From: a virus
IMG/VR virus record: IMGVR_UViG_3300003316_000080
Span: 1-64,000 of that record
Reading direction: 5' to 3' (one strand)
Length of the DNA: 64,000 nucleotides
In this document: one piece after another, positions 906 to 62,698 of the stretch
How positions within the stretch are numbered: position 1 is the stretch's first letter
How the letters are laid out: every line of letters begins with the position of its first letter
Program-made: the position numbers and the translations under genes
Notes under the pieces: generated by a model
The model's input: the letters and a program-made list of their open reading frames with translations, nothing else
Told to the model about the DNA's origin: nothing
Database searches by the model: none

Positions 906-941
906 GGAGAGATTGTATATAAACTTCTTACTGGTCCGCAA
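906..941 (-). promoter_or_regulatory. sigma70-like leftward promoter (TTGCGG-N18-TACAAT) with embedded CCAGTAAGAAGTTT motif
   Basis: -10 TACAAT = revcomp of 912-917, -35 = revcomp of 936-941; same TATATACAATCTC element recurs at 28783 and 62654. Confidence 0.35.
921..934. repeat. CAGTAAA-palindrome motif copy (CCAGTAAGAAGTTT, minus orientation)
   Basis: inside leftward promoter spacer. Confidence 0.5.
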
Positions 942-1132
942 GCACTTTTCGCGGTGTCTTCAGCACGTGGCGCGGTGTGTTGCGTAGCTGATGGCGGGGA
1001 CGCGTCTGTGCGCCACCGAACACAAGAGGCTCTGTACCCGTCTTGCTGGGTGTGTTCACAGCCAGCCCCTTCCCAGGAACCACGCTGTACTTGAACGGCC
1101 ACGGTGTGGCACGTAGCCACACGCCGTTCTTC

Positions 1133-1840
1133 TTAGCCACGACGCCCGCCCAGTTGACGCGCCACCATGACAGCAAGGCCAGAGCGCAGATAGCCGGGGA
1201 ATGCAGCATCGAACAGTGATGCCACATTAGCCTGACACGTCGACAACAGCTTTGCTCCCAGTGGCACTTCCATGCGACGGCTGATGCGCCGCGCATGTGC
1301 AACCACCAGTTCAGCCAACAGGTGATATACGGACACTCGTGTTGTGACTGGTTGCTCCAGCAACTTGCTTTGCTTCATGAAGTCGAGCACTGGAGTGAAG
1401 ACCGCACCAGAGGCCGCAGTACGCTTCATCGTGTGCACCGAGCCACCCGCCCCCACCGAGCCTCCGAGAGTGTCGTGTAGGGCCTTGTGTAGCGCCACAG
1501 CCCACATGTCCGAATCACGAGCCGGTGCAGCTTCGTTGACTTCGAGACTTAGCTGAGCAAGCAGCTGCTTTTTCTGGTCGAGGCTCAGACGATTTATGTT
1601 GGTCGAGTCTTCATCATCTTCAACAACCAAAACATGTCGAGCAGTTTTGTGTTGTGTTGATTTATGTAGACCCTGTCCGGGGTAATCACCACACCCACCC
1701 CCCTCCCCTAAAGGGAGGGGTGGGGTGGTGTGTGTTGTTCCCTGGCGCTTTTTTTGAGAAGTGCCAGACGACACTGAAGCACTCGCCACTGGTGGATAGT
1801 GGCGAACTGGCCTTGTCAGAGAAACCTTGCTACGCGCCAT
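1133..1840 (-). CDS. hypothetical protein; start uncertain
   Basis: ORF track; ATG at 1838-1840 with GAGG upstream, but ORF contains GC-rich palindrome 1687-1734; C-terminal two thirds protein-like. Confidence 0.35.
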   Translation of the reverse strand: MARSKVSLTRPVRHYPPVASASVSSGTSQKKRQGTTHTTPPLPLGEGGGCGDYPGQGLHKSTQHKTARHVLVVEDDEDSTNINRLSLDQKKQLLAQLSLEVNEAAPARDSDMWAVALHKALHDTLGGSVGAGGSVHTMKRTAASGAVFTPVLDFMKQSKLLEQPVTTRVSVYHLLAELVVAHARRISRRMEVPLGAKLLSTCQANVASLFDAAFPGYLRSGLAVMVARQLGGRRG

Positions 1841-1867
1841 AAGTGCCTCAGTATCGATTTGTGGGCG

Positions 1868-2371
1868 TCAGGTGGCCCGGGAGTGCACCTTGCCTTGTTT
1901 CGCGGGCTTGTGCGGCTTCTGTGCGGTTTTGCTCTTGCTGGCGGCAGAGACAGCCTTGCCGCGCGCAGCTTTCGCGTACAGACCTTCTTGCTTGTCTTGC
2001 TGCGGCGCAGACTGTTCACGCTTGGTCGGCGTCTTGATGGGCGGCTTGGGGTCACTGGACTCGCTGCCGTCGTCAGTTGCGCGCACAGCGCCCTTCTTGT
2101 TCTTCACCGGCTTCGTCTTCGCGACGGGCCCGGGTTGCTTGTTGGGCTCAGACGCGGCGGGCGGATTGAACTTCACGCCGTGATCCTTGGCCCACTTGGC
2201 AACTTCGCTCAGCTGGTACACCAGCTTGCCGTCGTCGCCGGTCGTGTAGGGCAGCGGCGCCTTGGTCGGCGTCCCGTTGCGCCAGTTATAGACGGTCATG
2301 TTTGCGACGCCGAACGCCTTCAGGATGTCCTTGTGCGTCAGCGTCTTCACGCCGTTCTTTTGCTTTGCCAT
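1868..2371 (-). CDS. HTH DNA-binding protein with Lys/Pro-rich basic tail
   Basis: ATG at 2369-2371 with AAGGAG 8 nt upstream; N-terminus MAKQKNGVKTLTHKDILKAFGVANMTVYNWRNG looks like a helix-turn-helix; tail KPVKNKKG...KPHKPAKQGK. Confidence 0.55.
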   Translation of the reverse strand: MAKQKNGVKTLTHKDILKAFGVANMTVYNWRNGTPTKAPLPYTTGDDGKLVYQLSEVAKWAKDHGVKFNPPAASEPNKQPGPVAKTKPVKNKKGAVRATDDGSESSDPKPPIKTPTKREQSAPQQDKQEGLYAKAARGKAVSAASKSKTAQKPHKPAKQGKVHSRAT

Positions 2372-2481
2372 GGGGTGCTCCTTCTTCATAGATGAAATGG
2401 CACGAGGATTATATATGAACTCGTTTGCGCTCTGTATATAGGCGCACGGCTACACTGCCGCCTTCCCACAGGAGAACTCAC
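2372..2481. promoter_or_regulatory. divergent intergenic region with AT-rich boxes (ATTATATATGAA, TGTATATAGG)
   Basis: 110-bp gap between leftward gene ending 2371 and rightward gene starting 2482; TATAAT readable on minus strand. Confidence 0.3.
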
Positions 2482-3132
2482 ATGAAGAACGCCAGATACG
2501 AGTTGGCCGGCCTGACGCTGCCTGTTCTGGGCATCGGCCGAGGCCAAGTGCTGCACGTAGGACCCAATGCCGGGTTCATGTGCATCAACCTTTTACTGGG
2601 ATCCTTGCCGAAAGCAGACGGGACCTTGAAGGAGATCACGACGGAAGCAGACCAGGTGTTGCACGAACTGATCGCCGCCTTCAACAAGTACCAGCACATC
2701 AACATCCTGCGTGTCCACTCGTCCGGCGATGCGATCGATCCGCTGCAGTGTGGCACCTTGTACGACCTGCATAAAGCGCTGCTCGCGTGGAGCCGTGAGC
2801 AGGGGCGTTCCTTCCAGATGCAGATCGAGACGAATGGGAAGCACGAGCACCCGAAGTTCCACGGCGCTGTGTCGATGATCCACGCACGGGCTGAGTCCCT
2901 GCTGTTCCTTGTCTTCGTGCACGGAAAGCCAGTGACTCAGATGCAGAACCTGTGCAAGCACTGGGTCTACACGTGTCAGGAACTGCTGGGCGAGCACTGG
3001 TCACATCTGTCACTGCCCTGGAAGACTTCGGCCTATGTCACGTACACACTCGATGACATCGTGTCGGACAAGGCCGCTCTCTTCACTGCCGCGAACAGGG
3101 AGGGCGTTCGTCTCCAGAAGGTGGTGGGCTGA
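2482..3132 (+). CDS. hypothetical protein
   Basis: ATG 2482 with AGGAG upstream; ORF track frame. Confidence 0.5.
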   Translation: MKNARYELAGLTLPVLGIGRGQVLHVGPNAGFMCINLLLGSLPKADGTLKEITTEADQVLHELIAAFNKYQHINILRVHSSGDAIDPLQCGTLYDLHKALLAWSREQGRSFQMQIETNGKHEHPKFHGAVSMIHARAESLLFLVFVHGKPVTQMQNLCKHWVYTCQELLGEHWSHLSLPWKTSAYVTYTLDDIVSDKAALFTAANREGVRLQKVVG

Positions 3133-3134
3133 TC

Positions 3135-4285: not shown

Positions 4286-5737
4286 GTGGAGATTCAAACC
4301 ACGCTAGACGCAAGTCTGGCTGAGAACCTGTTGACGCTTCTGTGCTTTGACGACGAGCACTGCAAGCTGATCCGGTATGGGCTGACGCCGCAGATGTTTG
4401 AATCGGCGGTGCTCAAGCAGATTGCCGGCGTCGCAATCGACTTCATCGATCAGTTTGGTGTCGCGGTCAAGGAGCACTTGCCCGACCACCTAGAAGACAT
4501 CCTGAACGGTGAAGACCAGCGCAAGGCGAAGTCGTATCGGATGGTGCTGGAAAAGCTGTATGACTCGAAGGACGCGGTGAATGCCGAGTTCGTCATGTCG
4601 CAGTTGCATGCATTCGTTCGCGCAGCCACGCTGAAGAGCGGACTGATGGACGCCGTTGCTCACATGGAGTCGGGCCGGATCGCGGAGTGCGAAACAGCCA
4701 TGACGACAGCCTTGAGCCGTCAGGTGATTTCGTTCGAAGTGGGCACGCGACTGGACAATGCAGACAGCTTGTCGGAAGCGCTGACCAATCTGGAAGAACC
4801 GGGCTTCAACCTCGACATTGACGCTTTCGATCGCGTTGGTGCGATTCCACGCCGCAAGCAGCTGTCTGTGTTCTTGGCAGCACGTGGCCGTGGTAAGTCA
4901 TGGTGGTCGATCTACATGGGCAAGCAGGCGCTGCTGCAGCGCTGGTCCGTGCTGATTGTCACGTTGGAGTTGTCTGAGGCGTACTACACGAAGCGCTTTC
5001 TGCAGTCGTTCTTCTCAATCTCGGACCGACAAGCCAAGGTGCTGGTGTCGGAGTTCAAGCGCGGACGTGATGGCTCGATCGTGGACGTCGTTCAGTCGGA
5101 ACTGCACCGACGCACACTGCGTGACGATGACTCCTTGGAGTACATCGCAGCGCGAGCACGGCGCGAGTTCAAGCAACGCCCCCCGCTGATCATCAAGAAC
5201 TTTCCTACAGCGACACTGACAGCTGAGACGCTGGAAGCGTATCTGGACGGTCTGCAGCGCCATCAGAACTTCACACCGGACCTGATCCTTGTCGACTATC
5301 CAGGCTTGATGAAGCTCGATCCCAAGAACAAGCGCATTGAGCTGGGATCGGCGGTGGAGCGTCTACGCGGCATTGCCGTAGCCCGCAACGCCCACATGGG
5401 GATCATGGCTCAGGGCAATCGTGAGTCGGAGACGGCACACACGGTCACGGCGGACATGACCGCCGAGGACATCTCGCTGTTGGCTACGGCTGACTTGTTC
5501 TTCACCTACAGCCAGACCAAGCTGGAGGAAAAGCTTAACCTCGCCCGCATCTTGTGTGAGAAGAACCGTAATGGTGTGGACGGCTTCGGGGCTCTGATCA
5601 CACAAAGCTATGAGATCGGCCAGTTCTGCCTGGACTCCAGTCCGCTAGAAACTTCTTACTGGGAACTGGACGTGCACGAGCAGGAAGACGAGGACCGGCC
5701 GCGCCGCAAGAAGCGTCGCAACGAGGACGAAGAATGA
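4286..5737 (+). CDS. dnaB: DnaB-like replicative DNA helicase
   Basis: GTG start; Walker A AARGRGKSW, Walker B LILVDYPG, C-terminal EKNRNG as in DnaB family. Confidence 0.75.
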   Translation: MEIQTTLDASLAENLLTLLCFDDEHCKLIRYGLTPQMFESAVLKQIAGVAIDFIDQFGVAVKEHLPDHLEDILNGEDQRKAKSYRMVLEKLYDSKDAVNAEFVMSQLHAFVRAATLKSGLMDAVAHMESGRIAECETAMTTALSRQVISFEVGTRLDNADSLSEALTNLEEPGFNLDIDAFDRVGAIPRRKQLSVFLAARGRGKSWWSIYMGKQALLQRWSVLIVTLELSEAYYTKRFLQSFFSISDRQAKVLVSEFKRGRDGSIVDVVQSELHRRTLRDDDSLEYIAARARREFKQRPPLIIKNFPTATLTAETLEAYLDGLQRHQNFTPDLILVDYPGLMKLDPKNKRIELGSAVERLRGIAVARNAHMGIMAQGNRESETAHTVTADMTAEDISLLATADLFFTYSQTKLEEKLNLARILCEKNRNGVDGFGALITQSYEIGQFCLDSSPLETSYWELDVHEQEDEDRPRRKKRRNEDEE

Positions 5738-7314: not shown

Positions 7315-7322
7315 TATACAAT
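7294..7322 (+). promoter_or_regulatory. sigma70-like promoter TTGAGA-N17-TACAAT
   Basis: -35 7294-7299, -10 7317-7322 within TATACAATCT element shared with leftward promoters; 32 nt upstream of primase start. Confidence 0.4.
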
Positions 7323-8742: not shown

Positions 8743-9330
8743 ATGCGCAAGCAACTCGTTGCACACAAGGTGGCTCCGTTGCCGTTCGAGGGCAAGATAG
8801 CCGGCTACGTCGTGAACAACCTGGAGATGTGGAAGTACGAACCGCTCTTCACGTACAACGACATGATCCAAGAAGCCACGCTGGTGTGGCTGAAGTGCGG
8901 ACAGGAATACCCGCACGTCGTCAGTAAACACTTTATGGCCCTGTTCAAGACGGCGTGGTATCGGCGCTGTGTCGATCTCGCCTATGAAGCATCGGAGTGC
9001 CGCGCACAGATCGCGATCACTTTCGGCGATACATACGGTTCGGATGACGAAACCATTGCGCTGGCTAAAGAACCGATGGGCGATGAAGAGAACGCGGGCT
9101 ACATGCGCACCCTGATCCGTCAGATCACGGAGCAGGCACCGGAAGAAGTCGTCAGCGTGTTCACGCTGATGCTCAATGCGCCGGTTGAACTGCTTGAACT
9201 GGCGTCGAACGCACTGGGACGTCGCAACAAGAACAACTCCAACATGATGGTTGCTCGTTGTCTGGGCCTGCCCGATGACAGCAAGCCTGTAGACGCAGCA
9301 AAAAGTTATGTACGCAGCGCACTGAAATAA
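8743..9330 (+). CDS. hypothetical protein; weak resemblance to ECF-type sigma factor
   Basis: ATG 8743 with GGAGGTG SD; DMIQEATLVWLKC (region-2-like) and MMVARCLGL (region-4-like); similarity weak. Confidence 0.45.
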   Translation: MRKQLVAHKVAPLPFEGKIAGYVVNNLEMWKYEPLFTYNDMIQEATLVWLKCGQEYPHVVSKHFMALFKTAWYRRCVDLAYEASECRAQIAITFGDTYGSDDETIALAKEPMGDEENAGYMRTLIRQITEQAPEEVVSVFTLMLNAPVELLELASNALGRRNKNNSNMMVARCLGLPDDSKPVDAAKSYVRSALK

Positions 9331-9403: not shown

Positions 9404-10387
9404 GTGAGCAAGATCCAGAAAGAACTGCAGGACGTGACCGGCGTGAATCCGGCCGAGGACCAGTCGATCATCGACCCGGCCTACATGAAGAAGGTCGTCA
9501 AGGCCGCTTCGAAGGACATTCCCGAGAAGGACTGGGACAAGCTGTCCGAGGAAGCCAAGGACTGGGTCAACGCGGCTGTGGACGCGATGAACGAGCGCGA
9601 AGACATCAAGCCGTATCCCGACTACAAGGAACCGGCAAAGGAAGAGAAGAAGTCGACCCGCCGCCGCACCGATGATGACGAAGGCGACAAGCCGGCCGCT
9701 GCCGCCTACGCCGTCGGCGACGAGGTCGAAGTGACCAAGACCAACGGCAAGACCGTGGCCGGCGTCGTCAAGAACCTCGATGATGACGGCGACCTCGTCC
9801 TCGAAGACGAAGAAGGTGAACTGGCCGTGCAGCTGAGCAAGATCGAGGCGGTCGTCGTGACCAAGGCCGCGAAGCCGGCCAAGGAGGAGAGCAAGCGTCG
9901 CCGCAACGATGACGACGAGGACGATGCGAAGGATGCGGGCCCCGGCGTCGGCGACGAGGTCAAGATCGTCAAGACCAACGACCGCACCAACGAGGGTGTG
10001 ATCACCTCGATCGACGAAGACGACATCGTCATCAAGGACGAAGACGGCGACGAGATCACGATCGCCCGCAGCAAGGTCAAGACCGTCGAGATCATCAAGA
10101 AGGCGAAGAAGGCGTCTGCCAGCAAGTCCGACGTGAAGGACGACGCCAAGGACGACGAAGGCGACGGCAAGCGCAAGCGCGCCGGCAAGGGCGAGGATGG
10201 CGTGTCCGCCGCGCAGCGCGTCTTCGAGATCATGTGCGAAGACCCGCTGGACCCGCCCTCGCTGGAAGAACTGACCAAGCAGATCCAGAAGGAAGGCCGC
10301 GACTGCAACGCCAACACGCTGAAGATCAACCACACGACCGCGTCGAAGATCTTCACGCTGCTGAAGGCCGGCAAGCACCTGAAGTGA
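9404..10387 (+). CDS. highly acidic protein with two internal repeats
   Basis: GTG start with AAGGAG 5 nt upstream; repeats VGDEVEVTKTNGKTVAGVV... and VGDEVKIVKTNDRTNEGVI...; D/E-rich. Confidence 0.55.
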   Translation: MSKIQKELQDVTGVNPAEDQSIIDPAYMKKVVKAASKDIPEKDWDKLSEEAKDWVNAAVDAMNEREDIKPYPDYKEPAKEEKKSTRRRTDDDEGDKPAAAAYAVGDEVEVTKTNGKTVAGVVKNLDDDGDLVLEDEEGELAVQLSKIEAVVVTKAAKPAKEESKRRRNDDDEDDAKDAGPGVGDEVKIVKTNDRTNEGVITSIDEDDIVIKDEDGDEITIARSKVKTVEIIKKAKKASASKSDVKDDAKDDEGDGKRKRAGKGEDGVSAAQRVFEIMCEDPLDPPSLEELTKQIQKEGRDCNANTLKINHTTASKIFTLLKAGKHLK

Positions 10388-10422
10388 TCGCCACACGGCA
10401 GCGCCCGCAAGGGCGTTGAACA

Positions 10423-10459
10423 GAGGGGCCCTGTATATTGCGGGGCCCCTTTTCTTTTG
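10423..10459 (+). terminator. rho-independent terminator
   Basis: stem 10424-10431 / 10443-10450 (GGGGCCC), loop TGTATATTGCG, T-tract 10450-10459; followed by GGAGAA and ATG 10471. Confidence 0.6.
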
Positions 10460-11640: not shown

Positions 11641-14274
11641 ATGTCGTTTTTCTTCGCAGAGACAAAGCGCGCCAAGAAGACAGGCGCTCCGTCGAAGAAG
11701 GCCGTGATCCCCATCGCAAGCCTGCAGCGTGCCGGCTGCACTGTATGTCCGCGCAAGGCAGACTGGGACGACGGCATCAAGACGCCACAGATGAAACCGG
11801 CCGGCCATCAGTCGCCGACGGTGTATCTGCTAGGCACGGCCCCGTCTGAGAAGGAAGACCGACTGGACGAGCCCTTTGTGTCCACAGCCTATGAAGAGGT
11901 GCTGTCGAAGTTGCCGGCGTCTCTGAGGCGGTATAGCCGCGTCGGCTATCTGACGCAGTGCAAGGCCGCCAGTAAAAACTTGATGCTGGAGATGTCGCCG
12001 GACCACGCGGAGATCGAGTGCTGCCGTCCTCGCGTGATCGCAGACATCGAAGAGACGAAGCCGATTGTCGTGATCGGCATCGGCGACAAAGCGCTTAATT
12101 GGGCCCTCCCCTTCTCATCGGGCGTCACCTCGATCACGCATCGAGGCACCTTGTTTCCGGTGAAGTTCGGGACGCACACGTGCTGGTTTTACAGCGTCAT
12201 GTTCCCGGCATATGTGCACCGAGAAAAGCGCAAGTATCCGACTGAGTACGAGATCGCGCTGACGCACGACCTACGCAATCTCGCTAAGTTGATCAACAAC
12301 GAAGAGATTGGTGTTCCGAAGATCTACGCAGACAAGTGGGAAGAGGGTATCGAGATCGTGACAGGTCACGATGCCGGAGACTTCCAGCGTGTGGAGCGCG
12401 CACTTGCAGACATGGCAGCGCTGCCCGATGTCGCACTCGACATCGAAACCAATGGCCTGCGGCCCTGGCACTTGAACAAGCCCAGGTTGTGGACTGCCGC
12501 AGTAGGCACATTCGAGCGTGTGATCGCCTTCCCGATTGATCATCCTGACGGCTGGGGCGCTGACGCGCGCATCCGCAAGATGCACGGTCTGTTCGCTGAG
12601 TGGCTGTGGCAATCGCGCCGGAAGTGGGCACATAACCTTGCAATGGAACTGGAGTGGTTTAACTGGTTCTACAGTCCGCACGCGATCATGGGCAATGAGT
12701 GGGGCGACACGATGGCCCTTGCCCATGTACTCGACGAGCGCAAGGGCACGAAGTCATTGGAGGTGCAGACGATCATTGGCGCCGGCTTCAACCTGAAGTC
12801 CATGAGTCCAGTTGATCCGTCGTTGCCTGACTGGATCAGTAAGTACCCGATTAAGACGGTGCTGAAGTACAACGGTGGAGACTCGAAATGGACGGACTTC
12901 CGTCGCCGCCAGCTGCAGCCGATCGTGGAGGCCGACGAAAAGCTCCATGACGTCTATCAGCACAAGATTCGAATGGCGCCGGCTTTGATCCTCACAGAGG
13001 CCAAGGGCCTACCGGTGTCTGTGCCGCGTGCTGAGAAGATGAATCGCGCACTGACGGAGCAACTGCACAAGATTGAAGACAAGCTGCGGGCTGATGTGGC
13101 TGTGCGCCGCCATACAACGCAGTTCGGCCAGTTCAGCCCGACGAACTCCGATCATGTGCTCGCGCTGATGGAAAAGACCCTCAAGCGCGATGAGATCTAC
13201 ATCATTGAGAAAGACGGGTCTGAGTCGAAGTCAGTCGCTGAAGAAGTGCTGGCGCTGATGCCTGAAGATGAGGTGCCATCAGCGAAGTTGATCCTGGAGC
13301 ACCGGGGCATCTCCAAGCTGAAGTCGACGTATCTGGAGCCAGTGATCAAGGGCACGATGATCAGCGTCGATGGCTATGTGCACTCGAAGTACAGCAGTCT
13401 GTTCGCCGCGACCCACCGCCTGAACTCTGAAGATCCCAACGCGCAGAACTGGCCTAAGCGCAAGCACAAGGAAGTTCGCTCGATCTTCTACGCGGAAGAT
13501 GATGAAGAGATTCTGGCGTGCGACTACGGCCAGATCGAGTTCCGCGTCGTGGGCATGTGCTCGGAGGACGACAACCTGTGCCGGGCCGTGTGGACCGGGT
13601 ACGACGTGCACTTGCACTGGGCAGAGCGGATCGTCGCCCTGTATCCCAAGATCAAGGACTGGATCAGATCAGAGTTCGAGGTGGACTGGGATGAGAAGGG
13701 CATCAAGACGCTGCGCCAGGAGGCCAAGAACAAGTGGGTGTTTCCGCAGTTCTTCGGTGCCTCGATCAAGTCGTGTGCAGCCTCTCTGCACTTGCCTGAA
13801 GAGGTCGCGCAGGATCTGGCTGATGAACTATGGGATGAGTTCCGAGGCGTCAAGCGCTGGCAAGACAAGTTGATGGAGTCGTTTGCGCGCAAGCTCTACG
13901 TGGAGACGCTGGACGGTGCGCGCCGTCGTGGGCCCATGACCAAAAACGAGATCATCAACATGCCGATCCAGGGCACAGCGGCCCGCATCGTGCAGACCGC
14001 GCATGCAGCTTTGGCTGAACGCGGCTTCATCATGGATCGCGGCGTGTATATCCCATCGCTGAACGTACATGATGACCTCTCAACCTGGAGCAAGAAGGCA
14101 GAGCGGGAGGCCAACGTGAAGATCATCGTCGAAGAGATGTGCAAGCACCGATTTGACTGGATCAACGTGCCGCTGCTGGTGGAAGTGTCGGCCGGGCCTG
14201 ACTGGTCCGACCTGACCGAGATCGGCAAGTACAGCAGCCATGAGCTGTTCAACATCAGGAACCCTTACCAATGA
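11641..14274 (+). CDS. polA: family-A DNA polymerase with N-terminal UDG-like (family 4) domain and 3'-5' exonuclease domain
   Basis: Exo I LDIETNGL; motif A DYGQIEFRV; motif C VHDDL; N-terminus YLLGTAPSEKEDRLDEPFV with Cys cluster resembles Fe-S UDG. Confidence 0.85.
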   Translation: MSFFFAETKRAKKTGAPSKKAVIPIASLQRAGCTVCPRKADWDDGIKTPQMKPAGHQSPTVYLLGTAPSEKEDRLDEPFVSTAYEEVLSKLPASLRRYSRVGYLTQCKAASKNLMLEMSPDHAEIECCRPRVIADIEETKPIVVIGIGDKALNWALPFSSGVTSITHRGTLFPVKFGTHTCWFYSVMFPAYVHREKRKYPTEYEIALTHDLRNLAKLINNEEIGVPKIYADKWEEGIEIVTGHDAGDFQRVERALADMAALPDVALDIETNGLRPWHLNKPRLWTAAVGTFERVIAFPIDHPDGWGADARIRKMHGLFAEWLWQSRRKWAHNLAMELEWFNWFYSPHAIMGNEWGDTMALAHVLDERKGTKSLEVQTIIGAGFNLKSMSPVDPSLPDWISKYPIKTVLKYNGGDSKWTDFRRRQLQPIVEADEKLHDVYQHKIRMAPALILTEAKGLPVSVPRAEKMNRALTEQLHKIEDKLRADVAVRRHTTQFGQFSPTNSDHVLALMEKTLKRDEIYIIEKDGSESKSVAEEVLALMPEDEVPSAKLILEHRGISKLKSTYLEPVIKGTMISVDGYVHSKYSSLFAATHRLNSEDPNAQNWPKRKHKEVRSIFYAEDDEEILACDYGQIEFRVVGMCSEDDNLCRAVWTGYDVHLHWAERIVALYPKIKDWIRSEFEVDWDEKGIKTLRQEAKNKWVFPQFFGASIKSCAASLHLPEEVAQDLADELWDEFRGVKRWQDKLMESFARKLYVETLDGARRRGPMTKNEIINMPIQGTAARIVQTAHAALAERGFIMDRGVYIPSLNVHDDLSTWSKKAEREANVKIIVEEMCKHRFDWINVPLLVEVSAGPDWSDLTEIGKYSSHELFNIRNPYQ

Positions 14275-18471: not shown

Positions 18472-19071
18472 ATGACCAGTAAAAAGTTACTGTGTGGAAT
18501 CGATCCGGGCGCCAAGGGCGCCTTGGTCGTTTTGGATGAAGACGGCACGGTGATCGCGTGGTTGCTGATGCCCATGATCAAGCAGGGAACTCAGGAGCGT
18601 GTGAACGCTGCGGCTGTGGCGGCATTCCTGAAGCCCTATGCCGCCAACATCACAGCGAATCTCGAACTGGTCGGAGCAATGCCGGGTCAGGGCGTCGCCA
18701 GCATGTTCAGCTTTGGTCACTCGGCCGGCGTAGTTACTGGGGTACTGGGCGCACTGGAGATCCCTGTCACGCTGATCACGCCTCAGAAGTGGACGAAGCA
18801 CTTCAACCTGGGTTCGAAGACAAAGAGCCCAGACCAAGCACGCGGCCTCGCAGCACGCTTCTGGCCCGCGTGGCGTGAACTTGACTTCAAGGGCAAAGGC
18901 GGTGCACTGGCAGACGCGGCGTTGATCGCGCGCTACAGCCTCGGACTCAATCGGGAAGCCATCGCGTATAACTCGGCACCGCGCAAGACGCGTCATGTGC
19001 TGAAAGAACTCGATGAAACTCCCCGCACTGCTGGTCGCCGACCTGCACCTGACGGCAAGCCCAGCCGATGA
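18472..19071 (+). CDS. ruvC: RuvC-like Holliday junction resolvase
   Basis: N-terminal LCGIDPGAKGALVVL and C-terminal ADAALIA catalytic-type motifs. Confidence 0.7.
   Translation: MTSKKLLCGIDPGAKGALVVLDEDGTVIAWLLMPMIKQGTQERVNAAAVAAFLKPYAANITANLELVGAMPGQGVASMFSFGHSAGVVTGVLGALEIPVTLITPQKWTKHFNLGSKTKSPDQARGLAARFWPAWRELDFKGKGGALADAALIARYSLGLNREAIAYNSAPRKTRHVLKELDETPRTAGRRPAPDGKPSR
18476..18492. repeat. CAGTAAA-palindrome motif copy (CCAGTAAAAAGTTACTG)
   Basis: overlaps first codons of ruvC-like gene, just after upstream stop. Confidence 0.5.
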
Positions 19072-37107: not shown

Positions 37108-37124
37108 TCGACACTTGACCACCG

Positions 37125-44389: not shown

Positions 44390-45051
44390 ACACAAGAGTT
44401 CGCAAGGTTTACGCGTTGATGGACCCACGTGGGGCTGTAACCAGCGTCCGATATGTCGGGTGCACGCTTCAGAAGATTCTGAACAGGTTGCAGTCCCACA
44501 TTTACGAAGCAGAGACGAGTCCTGATGTCACACCAAAGCTTGTGTGGTTGCGAGCGCTGGCCGACGCGGGTTTAAAGCCTCTGATCGTGCACTTGGAAAC
44601 AGTGGCACCTGAAGACGACTGGCAAGAGCGTGAGAAGTACTGGATCGCGAAATACAGCGGACCTGAATTGCTCAACACAACGACAGGTGGTATCGGGGCA
44701 CAGGGTTTAGCCCAAGATGTTCGTGATCGAATTTCGGAAGCGCTGCGCGGTCGTAGCCTGAGTGAAGAGCACAAAGCAAAGCTACGGAAGAACGCAGCAG
44801 AGAACCCATACAAGCACACAGAAGAAGCGAAGCGCGCTATCTCGGAGTCCAAGAAAGGTCTGAAGTTAGGACCCTTGTCCAACGAAGCCAAGCAGAAACT
44901 GCGTGATGCCATGGGCTCTCTGGTGTGGATCACCAACGGGCGGGAAAACCGACGTGTGAAAGCAGATGCCATTCCGGCTGGGTGGCAGAAGGGGCGAGCC
45001 CCAAAGGACCAGCCAAAGCAATCACGCCGCGTACTTCGCGACGACCTTTAA
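44386..45051 (+). CDS. GIY-YIG homing endonuclease with NUMOD3-like repeats
   Basis: KVYALMDPRG...VRYVGCT, conserved Glu in QEREKYWIAKY, repeated S-E-E-H-K-A-K-L motifs; free-standing between capsid and tail genes. Confidence 0.8.
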   Translation: MDTRVRKVYALMDPRGAVTSVRYVGCTLQKILNRLQSHIYEAETSPDVTPKLVWLRALADAGLKPLIVHLETVAPEDDWQEREKYWIAKYSGPELLNTTTGGIGAQGLAQDVRDRISEALRGRSLSEEHKAKLRKNAAENPYKHTEEAKRAISESKKGLKLGPLSNEAKQKLRDAMGSLVWITNGRENRRVKADAIPAGWQKGRAPKDQPKQSRRVLRDDL

Positions 45052-47457: not shown

Positions 47458-48963
47458 ATGGCAACCACGCCCGTTCAATTACCGCTGTCTCGTCTGATCA
47501 ACGTCGCTGTTGTTCTGACCGCAGCAGCTGCTCAAGCGCAGAACCTGTCGACCCTGCTCATCCTGGGCACGTCATCTGTGATCGACACCGTGACGCGCCA
47601 GCGCGATTACGAATCCCTCACCGATGTCGGCGCCGATTTCGGCAGCAGCGCACCTGAATATCTGGCCGCCCAGATCTACTTCGCGCAGTCGCCTCAGCCC
47701 ACCACGCTGAAGATCGGCCGCTGGTTCCTGACGGCCGCTGCGGGCTCGCTGGTGGGTAAGACACTGAGCGCGGCTGAACAGACACTGGCGAACTTCACTG
47801 CCGTGACCTCGGGTGGTTTCACCTACACCAAGAACGGCGGCGCTCCGACCAACGTGACGGGCATCAATCTGTCCACGGCAACCAACCTCAACGCGGTTGC
47901 CTCGCTGATCACGGCGGCGCTCACGGGTGCCACGATGGTCTGGAATGCGCAGTACCAGCGCTTCGAACTGACTTCGGCCGCCACCGGCGCGACTTCAGCG
48001 ATCAGCTTTCTGACGGCGCCGGGCTCTGGCACCGACATCAGTGCACTGCTGGGCATGACGGCCGCATCGTCGGGTGCCTACCAAGCGCCCGGTGCTGACG
48101 CAGAAACGCCGATCGCCGCAGTAACGTTGTTCGAGCAGAACTGGGGCCAGACGTGGTACGGCCTGCAGATGCTGGGTATCAGCGGTGGCGGCGCAACTGC
48201 TGACCATCTCGCTGTCGCTCAGTTCATCGAAGGCACGAACACGAAGCACGTGTACGGCATCACGACTCAGGATGCAGCGGCCCTCGTGCAGGGCAACACC
48301 ACCAACGTCGGTGCGGTCATGAAGGCCAACGGCCTAGACAAGACGATGGTGCGCTATTCGTCGAAGTCGCCGTATGCGGTCGCAACTGACTTCGGCCGCA
48401 TGCTGACGGTGAATTACAACGGCGAAAACACCGTCATCACGATGATGTACAAGCAGACGCCGGGGCTGGAGGCTGAGGCCATCAACAGCACGCAGGCGAA
48501 CGCGCTGCAGTCCAACAACATCAACGTGTCGGCGGGCTACTCGAACGGCACCGCAATCACGCAGTACGGCGTCATGTCGTCGGGTGAATACATCGACACG
48601 ATCTTTGGCATCGACTGGCTCGCGGTGACCGTGCAGACGAATCTGTACAACGCCCTGTACACGACGACCACGAAGATCCCCCAGACCGACGCCGGTCAGA
48701 ACCTCCTGAACACCAAGGTGGAAGAGGTCTGCCAACAGGGTGTGACCAACGGTCTGCTGGCACCGGGCGTGTGGAACGCAACAGGCTTCGGCACGCTGAA
48801 GCAAGGCGACTACATGGAGAAGGGCTACTACGTGTACAGCGCTCCGATGCGCACGCAGAACCAGTCCGATAGGCAAGCACGCAAGTCGATGCCGATCCAG
48901 GCCGCTGCCAAGCTCGCTGGTGCGATCCACACGGTGCAACTGACCGTTACCGTCAACCAGTAA
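47458..48963 (+). CDS. contractile tail sheath protein
   Basis: 501 aa immediately upstream of tube and frameshifted chaperone genes. Confidence 0.6.
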   Translation: MATTPVQLPLSRLINVAVVLTAAAAQAQNLSTLLILGTSSVIDTVTRQRDYESLTDVGADFGSSAPEYLAAQIYFAQSPQPTTLKIGRWFLTAAAGSLVGKTLSAAEQTLANFTAVTSGGFTYTKNGGAPTNVTGINLSTATNLNAVASLITAALTGATMVWNAQYQRFELTSAATGATSAISFLTAPGSGTDISALLGMTAASSGAYQAPGADAETPIAAVTLFEQNWGQTWYGLQMLGISGGGATADHLAVAQFIEGTNTKHVYGITTQDAAALVQGNTTNVGAVMKANGLDKTMVRYSSKSPYAVATDFGRMLTVNYNGENTVITMMYKQTPGLEAEAINSTQANALQSNNINVSAGYSNGTAITQYGVMSSGEYIDTIFGIDWLAVTVQTNLYNALYTTTTKIPQTDAGQNLLNTKVEEVCQQGVTNGLLAPGVWNATGFGTLKQGDYMEKGYYVYSAPMRTQNQSDRQARKSMPIQAAAKLAGAIHTVQLTVTVNQ

Positions 48964-48989
48964 GAACTTTCATCTGAAGGAGAGCCACC

Positions 48990-50140: not shown

Positions 50141-51586
50141 ATGGCAGCTGGTTCCTCTGAAGTCCTGCGCGAGTATCTGATTCGTCTGGGCTTCCAGATC
50201 GACCAGCGCGGCCAACGCAACTTCGACACGGCAACGGTCAACATCCAGAAACGCGTGATGGGAATCGCGCAGGCTGTGACCGCCGTGACGGGTGCTGCAA
50301 CCGCAATGGTTGTCTCGTACACCCGCGACATGGAGAAGATGTATTACGCCTCCCGTAAAGCGGAGGCGCCTGTCGCAGCGCTGAACAACCTCGCATACGG
50401 ATACCGTCAGATCGGACTGGATGGTAAACAGGCGATTGCCACAGTCGAAGGCATTGCACGCAGCATGCGCAGCAACCCGGGCTTGACGGCATTGCTGAAG
50501 GACCTGGGAGTGCCCGTGCAGGGCCGCACCAAAGATCAGGTACTGCTGGACCTCGTCGGTGCCTTGCGCAAGATGCCTGAGCACATCGCCATCCAGTACG
50601 GCAACCTGTTTGGGATCGACCCTGATCAGCTGAAACTTCTTACTGAAGGCTATGACAAGTTGCTGGCTGCTGAGAAGCAGCGCCAGATGATGACGCAGGG
50701 TCTGAACATCGATACAGAGGCAGCGGCAAAGGCTGCTGTCGAATATGCGAATGCACTCGACAAGGTGACGGAGCGCGCCAAGATCCTGTTTAGCGTCATT
50801 TCCGTTGGCATGCTGCCTTACTTCAAGCAGATGACGTCCAATCTGGACGAGATGCTGAAGAGCATGACACGCGTCGCTGCTTTTGCTCAAAAGGCCACGC
50901 CTGCTGAATTCTGGGCAGAGACGAAGAATCAGGCCCGGCTGCTGTGGGAGACGCTGTCGGGCAGTCGCGGCAGTGTGACGCTGAGCCCGCGAGCCCAGGC
51001 GCAGAAGGACACAGCAGGCTTGTCGGGCCTCCCCGCCCTCCCACCAGGGCCGCCAGCGCCAGCTGGCAATTTGCCCCTAGGCCTGCGGAACAACAATCCT
51101 GGCAACTTGCGCGCCGGCTTGGGTCAGACGGGCATGAACCGGGGGTTCGCAACTTTCGACACGCCGGAGCAGGGCCTTGCTGCAATGGCGCGGCAGCTAC
51201 TGCTGTACCAGAACCGCGACGGCCTCAAGAACATCTCGCAGATCATCAAGAAGTACGCACCGGCCAGCGAGAACAACACACAGGCATACATCGACGCAGT
51301 AACGAAGGCGACAGGCTTCAACTCTCAGGAGTACATTGACCTCAACGCGACAGGCAATCTGGCCGCGATCATGGAGGCCATGGTCAAGCACGAGAATGGG
51401 CGCAATCCGTTCTCGTCTGCCCAGTTTGAGACAGCGGCACGTCAGGGTGCCGCCTTCCAGCAGCAGACCAATATCACCGTCTATGGCGCCACAGACCCCA
51501 CAGCAACGGCAAATGCCATCGGCGGTCAGCAGCGCTCTGTCAACTCCGATCTGATGCGTCAGATGGGCACACGCAAGGTGGAATAA
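50141..51586 (+). CDS. tail tape measure protein (short) with C-terminal conserved LRNNNPGNLR region
   Basis: position after chaperone; helical N-terminus. Confidence 0.5.
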   Translation: MAAGSSEVLREYLIRLGFQIDQRGQRNFDTATVNIQKRVMGIAQAVTAVTGAATAMVVSYTRDMEKMYYASRKAEAPVAALNNLAYGYRQIGLDGKQAIATVEGIARSMRSNPGLTALLKDLGVPVQGRTKDQVLLDLVGALRKMPEHIAIQYGNLFGIDPDQLKLLTEGYDKLLAAEKQRQMMTQGLNIDTEAAAKAAVEYANALDKVTERAKILFSVISVGMLPYFKQMTSNLDEMLKSMTRVAAFAQKATPAEFWAETKNQARLLWETLSGSRGSVTLSPRAQAQKDTAGLSGLPALPPGPPAPAGNLPLGLRNNNPGNLRAGLGQTGMNRGFATFDTPEQGLAAMARQLLLYQNRDGLKNISQIIKKYAPASENNTQAYIDAVTKATGFNSQEYIDLNATGNLAAIMEAMVKHENGRNPFSSAQFETAARQGAAFQQQTNITVYGATDPTATANAIGGQQRSVNSDLMRQMGTRKVE

Positions 51587-57142: not shown

Positions 57143-59227
57143 ATGGCGACCAATGAATTTCTGCCCTTTGCCACAGACGCTGGCGCCGAGGTTGATACTC
57201 AGGCTGTGTGGGCTTCTCCTAGTGGTTACCGCCCGGTAGGTTATGGACCTGGGATTCTGACGAAAGAAAAGCTGAACAAGGCTCTTCGTCAGAGCACCTC
57301 TATCGCCTCTGCCGTCGCTCAATTGATGGCAGAGAACCTGCCCAGTGAAGACATCCTGGATAACGGTGACATCAACACGTTGGTGGACCAACTCTCGCGG
57401 GCTGTGATCACCGGTACATTCCTGAGTGGCACTGCCAGCACGCAGGGCTCGAACGCCGTTGGCACGCGTCAGAACTTGGCAGGGGCTGTCGATCGCACAC
57501 AACATGAAAAGAACGCCGACTTCATCAGCGTGAAGGATTTCGGTGCTGTTGGTGACGGTGTGCACGATGACACGACGGCTTGCGTGGCCGCAGCCACGGC
57601 CGCTCTTGCAGTTGGAGCGGGTCTGTATTTTCCAGACGGCCGCTATTACATCAACGGACTTTTCAGTGTCCCGAACAAAGTATCTTTGTATGGGTCTGGT
57701 AAGACTACCAGCGAGATCCAGTTCGGTTCCTCTGGAAGCCTTCGTGTGGTCGGCACATCACCCAGCTACGTGGGGCGTTTGTCTATCAGTCGACTAGGCT
57801 TGACCAATCAGGGCGCGGGTTCCCCCTTCGGCATTCAGTTCACGTATGCGACTCGCATCACGATGTACGACTGTGTCGTCTATAACACCAGCATTCAACT
57901 GTCTGCGTTCTCGTACATCACCTTTGAAAACTGTGACCTGTTTGGTGGCAGCATTCAAGGCGACCACCCCACAGTCAACGAGATCAGTGAAGCACTGAAG
58001 ATCATCGGCTGCAACGGCAGCAACTTTGCGATTAACGTGAAGGACACTGCCGACGTTCTCGTGTCACGTACACATCTGCTTGGGCCCACCTCACAGATCA
58101 TGATCCAGCGTGGCGAGCAAAACAGCGCGTTTTACCCACCTGTACAGATTGCCAATTGCATTGTGGATTCTGGTGATGATGAAGGCATTTATCTGATTGG
58201 CGTTGCGCCAAGAATTTCGGATACCTTCGTCAGCAGTGGTCGCACCAACCTGAAGTCAGGTGTGCGCTTGAATGATTGCATTGAAGGCAGCTTGATCGGT
58301 GTTACGGCGCGCTTTTGCGGCAATCATGGTCTGCATGTTGGCTTCAGCAAGCAGATCAAGGTTTTGGGGGGCCATTTTGACGACAACAAGGTGTCGGGTG
58401 TGCGTATCGGTGATTCGTCAGATCTGACTTTCATCGGCAATACGATGATGAACCAGCCATCGTGGTTCGGTGGTAGCTACCCACAGGTAAACGGCATCAC
58501 GGATGAGCCCTCGAACTGCACGAACATCACATGCATCGGAAATCAGACGGTGGGCAACACGAGTGCTCAGGTGTACCTGCCGTCTGCTACCAACATCATC
58601 CACAGCAACGTCGGATACAACGAAGGTCGCCTGACCTGTGATAGCTGGCGCAACAACACGGACAATGCGGCGTCTCTTGGGACTGCCGGCGCTAGATACA
58701 CCGTGGTGCATGCGGTCAGTGGCACCATCAACACGTCAGATGCCAATGAAAAGCAGGATATCGAAGATATTCCTGTGGAGTGGTTAGAGGCATGGTCCTC
58801 CGTAAGGCGTGTGCGCTTCAAATGGAAGGACGCTGTGCAGAAGAAAGGCACCGGTGCCCGTTGGCACATCGGTCTGATTGCACAAGAGATCTGGGAGGCT
58901 TTCGCCGCTCGCGGTATCGACGCGTTCGAGATTGGTCTTCTGTGTTATGACGCGTTCGAAGAAGTACCAGAGCGCACGGTGGAAGTGCCTGAAATCCCGG
59001 CACTCGTCATCGAGCACCCAGAAGTTCCTGAAGTGCTGGATGAAGACGGCCGTGTCATACAAGAATACAAGCCAGGATGGCACGAAGTGGTCGAAGAAGC
59101 GCAGCCAAGCCGTGTAGTAGTCGTCCAGGAGTACAAGCCTGCTGGTGGTCGCTATGGTGTGCGTTACGAAGAGGCTGAGGCACTAGAGGCCGCTTGGGTT
59201 CGCTGGAAATTGGAATCTCTTCAGTAA
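57143..59227 (+). CDS. tailspike, right-handed beta-helix (pectate-lyase-like) with C-terminal intramolecular chaperone domain
   Basis: ISVKDFGAVGDGVHDDTTAC; C-terminal SDANEKQDIEDIP (S74-like); N-terminal ~50 aa similar to preceding fibre. Confidence 0.65.
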   Translation: MATNEFLPFATDAGAEVDTQAVWASPSGYRPVGYGPGILTKEKLNKALRQSTSIASAVAQLMAENLPSEDILDNGDINTLVDQLSRAVITGTFLSGTASTQGSNAVGTRQNLAGAVDRTQHEKNADFISVKDFGAVGDGVHDDTTACVAAATAALAVGAGLYFPDGRYYINGLFSVPNKVSLYGSGKTTSEIQFGSSGSLRVVGTSPSYVGRLSISRLGLTNQGAGSPFGIQFTYATRITMYDCVVYNTSIQLSAFSYITFENCDLFGGSIQGDHPTVNEISEALKIIGCNGSNFAINVKDTADVLVSRTHLLGPTSQIMIQRGEQNSAFYPPVQIANCIVDSGDDEGIYLIGVAPRISDTFVSSGRTNLKSGVRLNDCIEGSLIGVTARFCGNHGLHVGFSKQIKVLGGHFDDNKVSGVRIGDSSDLTFIGNTMMNQPSWFGGSYPQVNGITDEPSNCTNITCIGNQTVGNTSAQVYLPSATNIIHSNVGYNEGRLTCDSWRNNTDNAASLGTAGARYTVVHAVSGTINTSDANEKQDIEDIPVEWLEAWSSVRRVRFKWKDAVQKKGTGARWHIGLIAQEIWEAFAARGIDAFEIGLLCYDAFEEVPERTVEVPEIPALVIEHPEVPEVLDEDGRVIQEYKPGWHEVVEEAQPSRVVVVQEYKPAGGRYGVRYEEAEALEAAWVRWKLESLQ

Positions 59228-59238
59228 ACTTCTTACTG
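59222..59238. repeat. CAGTAAA-palindrome motif copy (CAGTAAACTTCTTACTG)
   Basis: contains stop codon of tailspike gene; followed by hairpin 59239-59257. Confidence 0.5.
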
Positions 59239-59275
59239 GGCCGCTGAAGTGGCGGCCTTTACACAAAGGGCGGAC

Positions 59276-61543: not shown

Positions 61544-61545
61544 GT

Positions 61546-61962
61546 TCAGCTTCCGTAGTTCTTGATCAGATAGTCACGCAGCGCTTCATAGCCGGCCATC
61601 CACTGGCCGTCCGCGCATGCATCCCGATTGCTCTTCAGGAATTCTTGTGCCGTGGGGATGTGTGCTGGGATCGTCATGGTGCGCGGCATGTTCTGGGAAT
61701 AGCCCGTGCCGGACACAGACCCTAGGCCAACTACGGCCTTGCGCATAGGCACGCCCTTGGAGTCTTTGCTGGAGGACCCGTCTTCGATCATCCAGTGTCC
61801 CGTTGCTTTGGGCACGTTGTCGCGGGCCCATTTCCAGCCGTTAAGCCAGGATTGGCGTTGCCCGTCAAAGAAACGATCAAATCTTGACGGTGGTGCCTCA
61901 TGAATGCCCTTGCCAGCCCGATAGGCGTCCACGCCCTGCTGCCACAAACTGATGCTGTTCAT
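61546..61962 (-). CDS. protein with N-terminal ribosome-modulation-factor (RMF)-like domain
   Basis: GVDAYRAGKG ... QRQSWLNGWKWA aligns with E. coli RMF GYQAGIAG ... QRSQWLGGWREA. Confidence 0.45.
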   Translation of the reverse strand: MNSISLWQQGVDAYRAGKGIHEAPPSRFDRFFDGQRQSWLNGWKWARDNVPKATGHWMIEDGSSSKDSKGVPMRKAVVGLGSVSGTGYSQNMPRTMTIPAHIPTAQEFLKSNRDACADGQWMAGYEALRDYLIKNYGS

Positions 61963-62159
61963 GTCTCTTCCCTCAGTTGCCGCCGCTCACGCAGTTGATG
62001 CCGGCGCTTGCGTGCTTGTTGTGATTCCGCCCACAGCCAGCCGTTGGTCCACGACCAGCTAGGTCGTCCGTCTTGCTCCCGTGGGGCATCACCACGCCCT
62101 TCCCCACGCCGGAAGGCATCACAGCCCTCCTGCCAACGAGAGACGAAACGATTCACCAT
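61959..62159 (-). CDS. small RMF-like protein (paralog)
   Basis: GCDAFRRGEG ... RPSWSWTNGWLWA; tandem with previous gene. Confidence 0.4.
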   Translation of the reverse strand: MVNRFVSRWQEGCDAFRRGEGRGDAPREQDGRPSWSWTNGWLWAESQQARKRRHQLRERRQLREET

Positions 62160-62623
62160 GACTTCGGCGGCGGGATAGGGGTGTCGTCGTCCAAGGGCAC
62201 AAAGAACCTGACCGCCGCTGGATTCGTTGCTTTGTGGAAAGCTGCTGACATTTCTTTCTGAAGTTGATGCTCGAAGTTCTTGACCTCGTCATTCGCTTCC
62301 CGCGCCACGCTCTCAGGATCGAGCAGCATGCGAAGTTGTTGGTAGTGGCTGGAGTGGCGGATCACAGACGAGTCGTACATCAGGTCACGGGCACGGTTCA
62401 GGCGCGCTTGCAGTTCCACGTTGGCGTGGCGCAGCTTGCCTGATTCATGTGCTTCCGCCAGCCGCAGAGAGCGGCACTCAGCGTGGTGCGTGCGCTCCGT
62501 GTCCAGATCCGCCTGCACGATCGCGACTTGATCCTTCGCACACATCCAGCCTATGAACAGACCCACGATTGCCCCGAAAAGCATGAGGGTCACCATCGCT
62601 CCACCGATCATCCAGTCCGACAT
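62153..62623 (-). CDS. membrane protein with N-terminal TM and coiled coil
   Basis: ATG 62621-62623 about 30 nt downstream of promoter -10; MSDWMIGGAMVTLMLFGAIVGLFIGWM. Confidence 0.45.
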   Translation of the reverse strand: MSDWMIGGAMVTLMLFGAIVGLFIGWMCAKDQVAIVQADLDTERTHHAECRSLRLAEAHESGKLRHANVELQARLNRARDLMYDSSVIRHSSHYQQLRMLLDPESVAREANDEVKNFEHQLQKEMSAAFHKATNPAAVRFFVPLDDDTPIPPPKSW

Positions 62624-62647
62624 GTTGTTGCTCCAATGAGAAAGGGT

Positions 62648-62683
62648 GCAGAGATTATATACAAACCTCTGCACCCTCTACAA
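62648..62683 (-). promoter_or_regulatory. leftward sigma70-like promoter (TTGTAG-N18-TATAAT) with -10 inside 10-bp inverted repeat
   Basis: -10 = revcomp of 62654-62659; inverted repeat GGGTGCAGAG 62644-62653 / CTCTGCACCC 62667-62676; CAGTAAA motif 62684-62698 adjacent. Confidence 0.35.
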
Positions 62684-62698
62684 GAAACTTTTTACTGG
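62684..62698. repeat. CAGTAAA-palindrome motif copy (CCAGTAAAAAGTTTC, minus orientation)
   Basis: abuts stop codon of leftward gene and -35 of leftward promoter. Confidence 0.5.

Follow-up and report, generated by a model that had tools for sequence, protein, structure and literature searches.

What does a short AT-rich sequence do when it recurs, nearly unchanged, at the gene junctions of a GC-rich phage genome? The question is raised by IMG/VR virus record IMGVR_UViG_3300003316_000080, of which positions 1 to 64,000 (here, the window) were analyzed. This 64-kb stretch, 59% guanine plus cytosine (GC), comprises most of a tailed-phage genome and contains at least 14 copies of a 16-base AT-rich motif, CAGTAA(A/G)AAGTTTCTG. 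A first-pass annotation made from the letters alone had described the motif as a recurrent palindrome and proposed that it was either the site of a dimeric regulator or a signal for RNA processing or termination. We find a genuine cis-regulatory element that has a direction, is under selection, and is specific to this lineage; it is ordinary in kind among phage elements and may serve as a set of operator and roadblock sites.

The repeated element and its placement

Aligned in one orientation, the sites read (C/G)CAGTAA[A/G][A/C]A[G/C]TT[T/A]C[T/A][G/A/T]. All 11 positions first reported for the motif hold the sequence described, and its abundance exceeds chance, as had been supposed: the original consensus, CAGTAAAMAGTTWCTG, at ≤3 mismatches, has 15 matches, versus 0.54 ± 0.73 (maximum, 3) in 100 dinucleotide shuffles, and the 7-mer CAGTAAA, which is among the most over-represented 7-mers, occurs 14 times, versus 1.35 expected. 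With a position weight matrix derived from 11 sites, 14 sites score 19.4 to 36.2 bits and stand apart from the next best, at 14.9 bits (Table 1). The copies listed by the first-pass annotation are thus real, but three strong ones (at 5646, 48958, and 50630) had been missed, and the two "partial copies" at 8922 and 11970, although indeed within genes, are genuine lower-scoring members.

The description of the motif as palindromic applies to part of the set: the copies at 18477, 42338, and 59222 are true palindromes, whereas the others are directional, making the motif quasi-palindromic overall. Its left arm, CAGTAA, is invariant (14/14 sites), and its right arm is degenerate (mostly TTTCTG with at least one arm mismatch, and CAGAAA-like on the other strand). 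The motif is directional, the copies at 918–933, 28822–28837, and 62682–62697 being on the minus strand. No sequence outside the 16-mer is conserved in the aligned sites, which therefore conceal no two-block (−35/−10) promoter. A hairpin at ≤−4.9 kcal/mol can form in only 4 of the 14 copies, most having a T-T mismatch or no stem; none of the copies shows compensatory changes supporting a conserved stem-loop, and no Rfam family matches the motif.

The concentration at gene junctions first noted is borne out, in that intergenic sequence and sequence ≤18 nucleotides (nt) from a gene end, together 11.6% of the window, hold 10 of the 14 sites (binomial P = 2.8e-7). The reported sharing of stop codons (CAG TAA) is seen at 30658, 36049, 48958, and 59222, where the TAA of the motif ends, respectively, gene 30445–30663, open reading frame (ORF) 35944–36054, the sheath gene, and the tail fiber gene; three more copies (42338, 62697, and 18477) begin 1 to 6 nt past a stop. 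Distances from the motif to the next start range from −5 to >58 nt. Of the 14 copies, 11 read in the same direction as local transcription (two-sided P about 0.06), as do 9 of the 10 at junctions (P about 0.02); the other three of the 14 (5661−, 50645−, and 59238−) all belong to the CAGTAAGAAGTTT variant.

In this 59% GC genome, strong −10 elements matching TATA(C/T)AAT are rare. As the first-pass annotation had observed, some copies lie in or beside promoter elements: five (918, 28822, 36049, 40808, and 62682) are within about 60 bp of a sigma-70-type promoter, in operator-like positions. The junction copies at 18477, 30658, 42338, 48958, and 59222 have no recognizable promoter nearby and occupy very short intergenic spaces, often over the upstream stop codon and mostly oriented with transcription. 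A terminator-type hairpin lies within 0 to 8 nt downstream of three copies (36049, 59222, and 62682).

Table 1. Motif copies, promoter and terminator elements, candidate binding proteins, and gene blocks of the window
Feature	Position	Strand	Score (bits)	Context
Motif, CAGTAAGAAGTTTATA	918–933	−	30.9	Fills spacer of leftward sigma-70-type promoter, TTGCGG-16-TATACA
−10 octamer, TATACAAT	919–912	−		Belongs to the 918–933 promoter
Motif, CAGTAAGAAGTTTCTA	5646–5661	−	29.2	Antisense within helicase gene 4286–5737; written in rare AT-ending codons
Motif (weaker), CAGTAAACACTTTATG	8922–8937	+	19.4	Within sigma-like gene 8743–9330
Motif (weaker), CAGTAAAAACTTGATG	11970–11985	+	23.1	Within DNA polymerase gene 11641–14274
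Motif (palindromic), CAGTAAAAAGTTACTG	18477–18492	+	27.0	Codons 2–7 of RuvC-like gene (ATG 18472), very rare codons (0.9th percentile); 6 nt past upstream stop codon
Motif, CAGTAAAAAGTTTCTA	28822–28837	−	30.9	Divergent control region 28813–29008; about −62 to −47 of leftward promoter (TATACAAT, 28790–28783); also covers −35/spacer of candidate rightward promoter (TACAAT, 28843–28848)
Motif, CAGTAAAAACTTTCTG	30658–30673	+	31.8	TAA is stop codon of 30445–30663; 3′ end enters ribosome binding site GGAG, 8 nt ahead of ATG of 30682–30891
Motif, CAGTAAACAGTTTCTG	36049–36064	+	28.8	TAA ends 36-aa signal-peptide ORF 35944–36054; −10-like TATATA (36068–36073) and terminator hairpin (36073–36098) just downstream; directly 5′ of GTATATAGGGCGC, which recurs at rightward early promoter region near 2434
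Motif, CAGTAAAAAGATTCAG	40808–40823	+	28.6	9 nt past −10 hexamer TATAAT (40793–40798), about +2 to +17 of that promoter; ATG (40836) of Pa193_gp24-like head gene 12 nt on
Motif (palindromic), (G)CAGTAAACAGTTACTG(C)	42338–42353	+	29.7	Between gp24-like gene and decoration-protein gene (ATG 42381)
Motif, CAGTAAGAACTTTCAT	48958–48973	+	30.5	Stop codon in common with tail sheath gene 47458–48963; 16 nt ahead of tail tube ATG (48990)
Motif, CAGTAAGAAGTTTCAG	50630–50645	−	26.9	Antisense within tail gene 50141–51586; five consecutive AT-ending codons (1.2th percentile)
Motif (17-bp palindrome), CAGTAAACTTCTTACTG	59222–59238	best on −	23.3	Stop codon in common with tail fiber gene; directly precedes hairpin GGCCGCTGAAGTGGCGGCC (59239–59257); lysis cassette from 59276
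Motif (top score), CAGTAAAAAGTTTCTT	62682–62697	−	36.2	1 nt past stop of 62699–63148(−); about −52 to −37 of leftward promoter with TATATAAT (62661–62654), which sits in loop of terminator-like hairpin 62680–62636
Motif-like (weak), CAGTAAAAGGTTGATG	2583–2598	−	10.9	Within first rightward early gene; membership uncertain
Strong −10 elements	919–912, 2415–2408, 28790–28783, 62661–62654	−
Strong −10 element	7315–7322	+
−10 element TATAAT	40793–40798	+
Hairpin/T-run/GGAG design	10422–10452, 28956–28980, 36073–36098, 37124–37149, 62680–62636(−)			Several loops with GTATA
Candidate trans factor	1868–2371	−		First gene of leftward early operon; excisionase-type winged-helix N-terminus, long basic tail
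Sigma-like protein (weak evidence)	8743–9330	+		Trans factor if the motif were a phage-specific promoter
Replication/recombination genes	4.3–22.5 kb	+		Helicase, primase, sliding clamp, family A DNA polymerase, clamp loader, gp32-like single-stranded DNA-binding protein, RecA-like, RuvC-like, SbcCD
Two DNA methyltransferases	23.2–26.9 kb (23192–26852)
Late block	29.0–60.9 kb	+		Small terminase, intein-bearing large terminase, portal, Mu-F-like, Pa193_gp24-like, decoration, major capsid, E217-type tail proteins, tail fiber, endolysin
Three blocks of small genes without known function	1–2.4, 27.0–28.8, 60.9–64 kb	−

Several other features adjoin the copies. The 9-mer CCTCTACAA occurs exactly twice (28839–28847 and 62675–62683), both times on the plus strand and abutting a motif copy, on opposite sides of it; its enrichment is not significant once mismatches are allowed. 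A recurring design in the window places a strong GC hairpin and T-run at most about 28 nt ahead of GGAG and a start codon ("TTTCnTTTTGGAGAAC-ATG"). At 62680–62636, where the TATATAAT promoter element is in the hairpin loop, upstream transcripts would terminate, whereas those starting at the element would escape. The 36-aa ORF at 35944–36054 begins with a signal-peptide-like N-terminus (MKWMYRFGLAAVLAFVSSLGHVQA...) and belongs to a terminator-rich insertion between the terminase and portal genes; lying in a region that ZHS (the nearest named relative, introduced below) lacks, it looks like a moron.

Conservation and lineage specificity

The window phage has no close relative in INPHARED, where the nearest genome is that of Edwardsiella phage vB_EpM_ZHS (ZHS), which is syntenic at protein identities of 30 to 63%. 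Closer relatives are known only as Logan contigs: the same phage at 100% in SRR1926121 (L052 and L054), two relatives at about 92 to 95% (L049 and L050 from SRR31214434; L051 from SRR35255263), and one at about 80% in SRR21418947 (L048, L055, and L057). Comparative data from these cover all strong sites except 28822, 36049, and 62682.

The motif is under purifying selection. In the ~80% relative, which keeps all five alignable copies, motif identity is 95%, versus 72% in the ±60-nt flanks (Fisher P = 9e-7, summed over sites); in the ~93% relatives, which keep every alignable copy, antisense intragenic ones included, it is 98.7%, versus 93.2% (P = 3e-4). Substitutions in the relatives fall on variable motif positions. 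The copies at 11970 and 18477 are identical in L049, as is that at 48958 in L050 and L051, where the 50630 copy matches at 15/16 positions. The copy at 5646–5661 is retained at 15/16 in L049 and 14/16 in L048 while its flanks diverge; both changes in the latter are at tolerated positions, and one of them is non-synonymous. The 8922 copy, identical in L048 and L049, is uninformative because it lies within the most conserved segment of its protein.

Conservation extends to sites whose surroundings have been exchanged. The 918–933 copy is identical in L049 despite replaced downstream genes. In L057, a 30-bp island consisting of the 30658 motif, GGAG, and ATG is the sole homology between non-homologous genes on either side, and in L055, the 40808 motif and its TATAAT are identical although the sequence between and around them has changed. 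The 42338 copy keeps its arms in L055, where the center goes from AC to GA (allowed variants) and the TAA of the motif becomes a stop codon. In L050, the C-terminus of the tail fiber has been replaced, and homology picks up at 59220, at the motif. In L049, CAGTAAAAGTTTGATG stands in place of the weak element at 2583–2598, in a gene too diverged for blastn alignment. The same contig has an extra copy, CAGTAAAAAGTTTCAT, at its positions 49–64, after a small hairpin at the contig end; its left arm is non-homologous to the window.

At greater distances, the motif is missing, and the lineage specificity noted at the outset holds: it is conserved at about 93% and 80% identity and absent from ZHS and from IMG/VR relatives. 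An exact motif scan of IMG/VR returned 12 single, unrelated matches and no contig with several copies; the loci retrieved by major capsid protein and gp24 searches (IMG/VR, JGI metagenomes, and GTDB genomes) lack it; and k-mer enrichment, both genome-wide and intergenic, revealed no equivalent repeated junction motif in ZHS. The pattern AGTAA[AG]N3TT[TA] occurs only twice in ZHS, each time in the spacer of an early promoter that is homologous to the 918–933 promoter, and two other ZHS promoters have a CTTTATAAAG palindrome in the spacer. Within the window, three leftward promoters (900–948, 28771–28819, and 62642–62690) form a repeat family, D6 (AAAGTGCTTGCG...TTTATATACAATCTC), whose promoter regions are homologous to ZHS early promoters (34270 and 50097). 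(One Logan contig of the window phage starts beside a D6 promoter, at about window position 28697.) The distribution in ZHS suggests that a promoter-spacer element of the phage family gave rise to the motif; from there, we infer, it multiplied to other junctions in the window lineage. At the sheath-tube junction, distant relatives have only the ancestral ...AAC CAG TAA stop, so that the rest of the 48958 copy arose in this lineage.

Candidate functions and binding proteins

Our tentative preference, which we hold at just short of an even chance, is that the motif comprises operator and intergenic roadblock sites for a DNA-binding regulator, most likely encoded by the phage itself. The promoter-linked copies would be classical operators, and the junction copies (18477, 30658, 42338, 48958, and 59222) would act as orientation-dependent roadblocks or modulators of read-through, with an effect that could be repression, activation, or polarity. 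Several things favor a site acting at the DNA level: the motif is associated with promoters, one copy falls between divergent promoters, antisense copies spelled in rare codons are conserved, and RNA structure is lacking. The promoter-spacer matches and CTTTATAAAG palindromes of ZHS provide a precedent in the family for operators in promoter spacers. Of the first proposal of a dimeric regulator site, the protein-binding DNA site is the part best supported; a symmetric dimer is not required, since the dyad is imperfect and the motif asymmetric and biased in orientation, which a monomeric or asymmetric binder fits equally well.

Several observations weigh against operators and roadblocks. The strong early promoters at 2415(−) and 7315(+) carry no copy; the orientation bias is only moderately significant; and three promoter-linked copies are not independent, since their promoters are the paralogs of family D6. 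Searches of PHROGs, Pfam, NCBIfam, and PDB sequences, covering the small and DNA-binding candidates of the window but not exhaustive, returned no homolog of the mycobacteriophage repressor (gp71 type, N-terminal helix-turn-helix [HTH] plus stoperator domain). Moreover, the phage looks virulent, leaving genome-wide silencing without an obvious purpose, and a directional AT-rich motif just 5′ of ribosome binding sites also fits a phage-specific promoter.

That last possibility, in which the motif would be the core of a promoter to which host RNA polymerase is redirected by a phage factor, most obviously the 8743–9330 protein, strikes us as somewhat unlikely, though it accounts for much of the layout. 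The motif is directional, AT-rich, and gene-oriented at 11/14 sites; it stands 8 to 58 nt 5′ of the start codons of the gp24-like, decoration, tail tube, and small late genes; and it is kept with ribosome binding site and ATG across swaps of neighboring genes. The phage encodes a possible sigma factor, and Pbunavirus 14-1, with which it has E217/Pa193-type structural proteins in common by Pfam names, carries a phage-specific motif at 11 promoters, none of which is active unless the cells are infected (PMC10914365). However, neither a second conserved block nor a conserved start region surrounds the motif, the gap to the ATG at 30658 is just 8 nt, the 18477 copy lies inside the first codons of the RuvC-like gene that it would have to serve, and a terminator hairpin follows the 36049 and 62682 copies after 3 to 8 nt. 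The portal operon (37168–40547, between terminators 37124–37149 and 40622–40644) has no copy, such that the motif cannot be a general late promoter. The sigma assignment is itself weak, and the core segment of the protein, HFMALFKTAW, is invariant in motif-free relatives, although a change of specificity is possible.

Action in mRNA, either as a translational operator or enhancer by ribosome binding sites or as an endoribonuclease cleavage site, seems improbable to us. Five copies (18477, 30658, 40808, 42338, and 48958) either span a start codon or precede one by ≤30 nt, the orientation bias means that most copies are transcribed in sense, the 40808 motif would make up the 5′ end of the TATAAT-promoter transcript, and RNase E prefers RN/WUU, which AG/UUU would fit. 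Distances to start codons nevertheless vary from −5 to >58 nt, the 918–933 and 36049 copies occupy promoter spacers, the sense strand of the 28822–28837 copy, between divergent promoters, is not expected to be transcribed, and the antisense copies, conserved at 5646 and 50630, would be silent. With only 4 of 14 copies folding, no compensatory changes, and no Rfam match, an RNA processing or termination signal, the other function initially put forward, is unlikely. Less probable still, and in our judgment a distant prospect, is that the motif marks the boundaries of exchangeable gene cassettes as a recombination linker, its regulatory look being secondary. The tail fiber swap in L050 ends at 59220, the 30-bp island of L057 spans 30655–30684, the left-arm replacement in L049 begins about 45 nt from the 918–933 copy (near 874), and the phage has RecA-like, SbcCD, and RuvC-like genes, two homing-type endonuclease genes, and an intein. 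Yet the breakpoints at 2525/3419, 44336/45046, and 57292 have no copy, a 16-bp stretch offers little length for homologous exchange, no site-specific recombinase turned up, and the association with promoters, the orientation bias, and the intragenic copies are left unexplained. Breakpoints at gene ends are in any case expected, because only recombinants with intact genes survive.

Other candidates were rejected. A promoter for a single-subunit phage RNA polymerase has no evident polymerase to read it: the only large unassigned protein, 33137–35374 (745 aa), shows no polymerase similarity, its only match being a weak one to polysaccharide deacetylase. GAAACTT, the motif in reverse, resembles the −35 box of extracytoplasmic function (ECF) sigma factors; it is not followed by a −10, and transcription from it would run antisense to the genes. 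A structured RNA, an intrinsic terminator, and an RNase III-type hairpin fail on the hairpin count (4/14) and the lack of an Rfam match. Compared by eye, the 14 aligned sites match no consensus for LexA (CTGT-N8-ACAG), integration host factor (IHF; WATCAANNNNTTR), or Lrp (YAGHAWATTWTDCTR): the arms are in the wrong order for LexA, the IHF core ATCAA is absent, and Lrp comes nearest (CAG...CTG arms and an AT-rich center), though its consensus is 1 bp shorter than the motif, which is also far less variable.

Three phage proteins come up as possible binders. The 1868–2371 protein has PHROG DNA-binding/excisionase matches and is the ortholog of ZHS_85, a "DNA-binding protein" (39% identity); it is a plausible candidate, although assigning it to the motif is speculative. 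The small protein encoded at 30445–30663, which had been suggested as a binder and is flanked by the motif, is an unlikely one, since the ~80% relative keeps the motif while both neighboring genes are replaced. The description of the 8743–9330 protein as sigma-like stands only weakly: it has a weak fold resemblance to ECF sigma factors and no Pfam, NCBIfam, or PDB match, even with its family profile against PDB sequences. Its family comprises 17 homologs, none of them named and none with a Pfam match, which share the invariant HFMALFKTAW segment and are encoded between primase-like and clamp genes in all relatives; orthologs in ZHS and other relatives, where the motif is absent, are 39 to 45% identical and retain the segment. 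Directly after this gene, 9404–10387 encodes a protein of 327 aa that contains internal repeats and gives weak KOW/SH3-like matches (Spt5 KOW and RimP C-terminal); its third-position GC is very high (0.88).

Genome setting and comparison with known systems

With its PB1/E217-like structural genes, the window phage is a myovirus of the Gram-negative type. It appears to be virulent: it has replication machinery of its own, and we found neither an integrase nor a repressor. The identical proteins P0018 and P0138 were found on one 67,482-bp contig, and about 3.5 kb of the genome falls outside the window. At the left end (positions 1–120), a 12-nt periodic repeat, AGCCGGAGCCGT/CGCCGT, encodes on the minus strand a Gly-rich stretch (GSGYGDGDG...) of a gene running off the window. 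ZHS has genes for 7-deazaguanine (queuosine-type) DNA modification (DpdA-like, FolE, QueC, QueD, and QueE; L010/L011, OM621816), which have no counterparts in the window, where there are instead the two DNA methyltransferases at 23192–26852. The large terminase (31264–33111) contains an intein, recognized by Hint/intein Pfam matches, whereas the 480-aa terminase of the ~80% relative is intein-free. Directly 3′ of the major capsid gene is a homing-endonuclease-like gene (44386–45051; PHROG 314, with a faint NUMOD3 match), and the segment 44336–45046 is missing from L050 (a ~93% relative) and present in L051, which makes it a mobile insertion.

Genome-wide sets of a single short site time or silence genes in several phages, of which few lineages are well characterized; here, such a motif is linked both to promoters of host type and to mosaic junctions, in a group of uncultured phages equipped with replication machinery of their own. 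Judged from the sequence, the finding is solid but, for now, ordinary. Were the binder to be found, the motif would supply an orthogonal operator/regulator or promoter/factor pair, a case study of a cis-regulatory network expanding from one promoter element, and help in explaining cassette exchange at these junctions in these phages. A virulent PB1/ZHS-related myovirus might have independently evolved a stoperator-like network around a protein unrelated to the mycobacteriophage repressors, a proposal that we consider doubtful as a whole. One phage protein would then act on the asymmetric 16-mer at early promoters and about ten gene junctions, exerting orientation-dependent control that would time or insulate gene cassettes in lytic growth, and the network would have grown by the copying of an ancestral promoter-spacer operator to new junctions.

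Among promoters, the element is like the T4 late promoter (TATAAATA, recognized with gp55) and the non-sigma-70 motif of 14-1 in being a single short, conserved, directional AT-rich element distinct from the sigma-70 consensus, upstream of middle or late genes in a phage with a candidate sigma-like gene. Its sequence is unrelated, the 14-1 motif having its CTGGG core some 5 bp away from the start site; several copies are placed where a promoter would hardly make sense (in the first codons of the RuvC-like gene, only 8 nt ahead of an ATG, and immediately before terminators), and an essential late operon has none. ZHS offers putative operators within promoter spacers, recognized by sequence alone: early promoters homologous to the 918–933 promoter carry AGTAAA-N3-TTTATA in the same register, but ZHS has just two copies, none at junctions, and the spread to at least 14 is specific to the window lineage.

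The stoperators of mycobacteriophage L5 often overlap stop codons. In the cluster A mycobacteriophages (L5 gp71 and the TipsytheTRex repressor), each genome has many copies of a short asymmetric site, which overlap early promoters or else occupy short gaps between genes, and whose orientation correlates with that of transcription (PMC9283540). The window presents a comparable layout: a short asymmetric site is repeated many times, at early promoters and in tight intergenic gaps, often on stop codons; most copies are co-directional with transcription, a bias that is only moderately significant. The differences are that the site is a 16-bp quasi-palindrome rather than a fully asymmetric 13-mer, that there are about 14 copies, three of them anti-oriented, rather than >20, and that no repressor with HTH and stoperator domains was found in what is a Gram-negative-type and apparently virulent phage. 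Because of the missing repressor homolog and the apparent virulence, we liken the sites to stoperators in how they might work, not in membership; as an arrangement, the layout of the motif is closest to that of the mycobacteriophage operators and stoperators.

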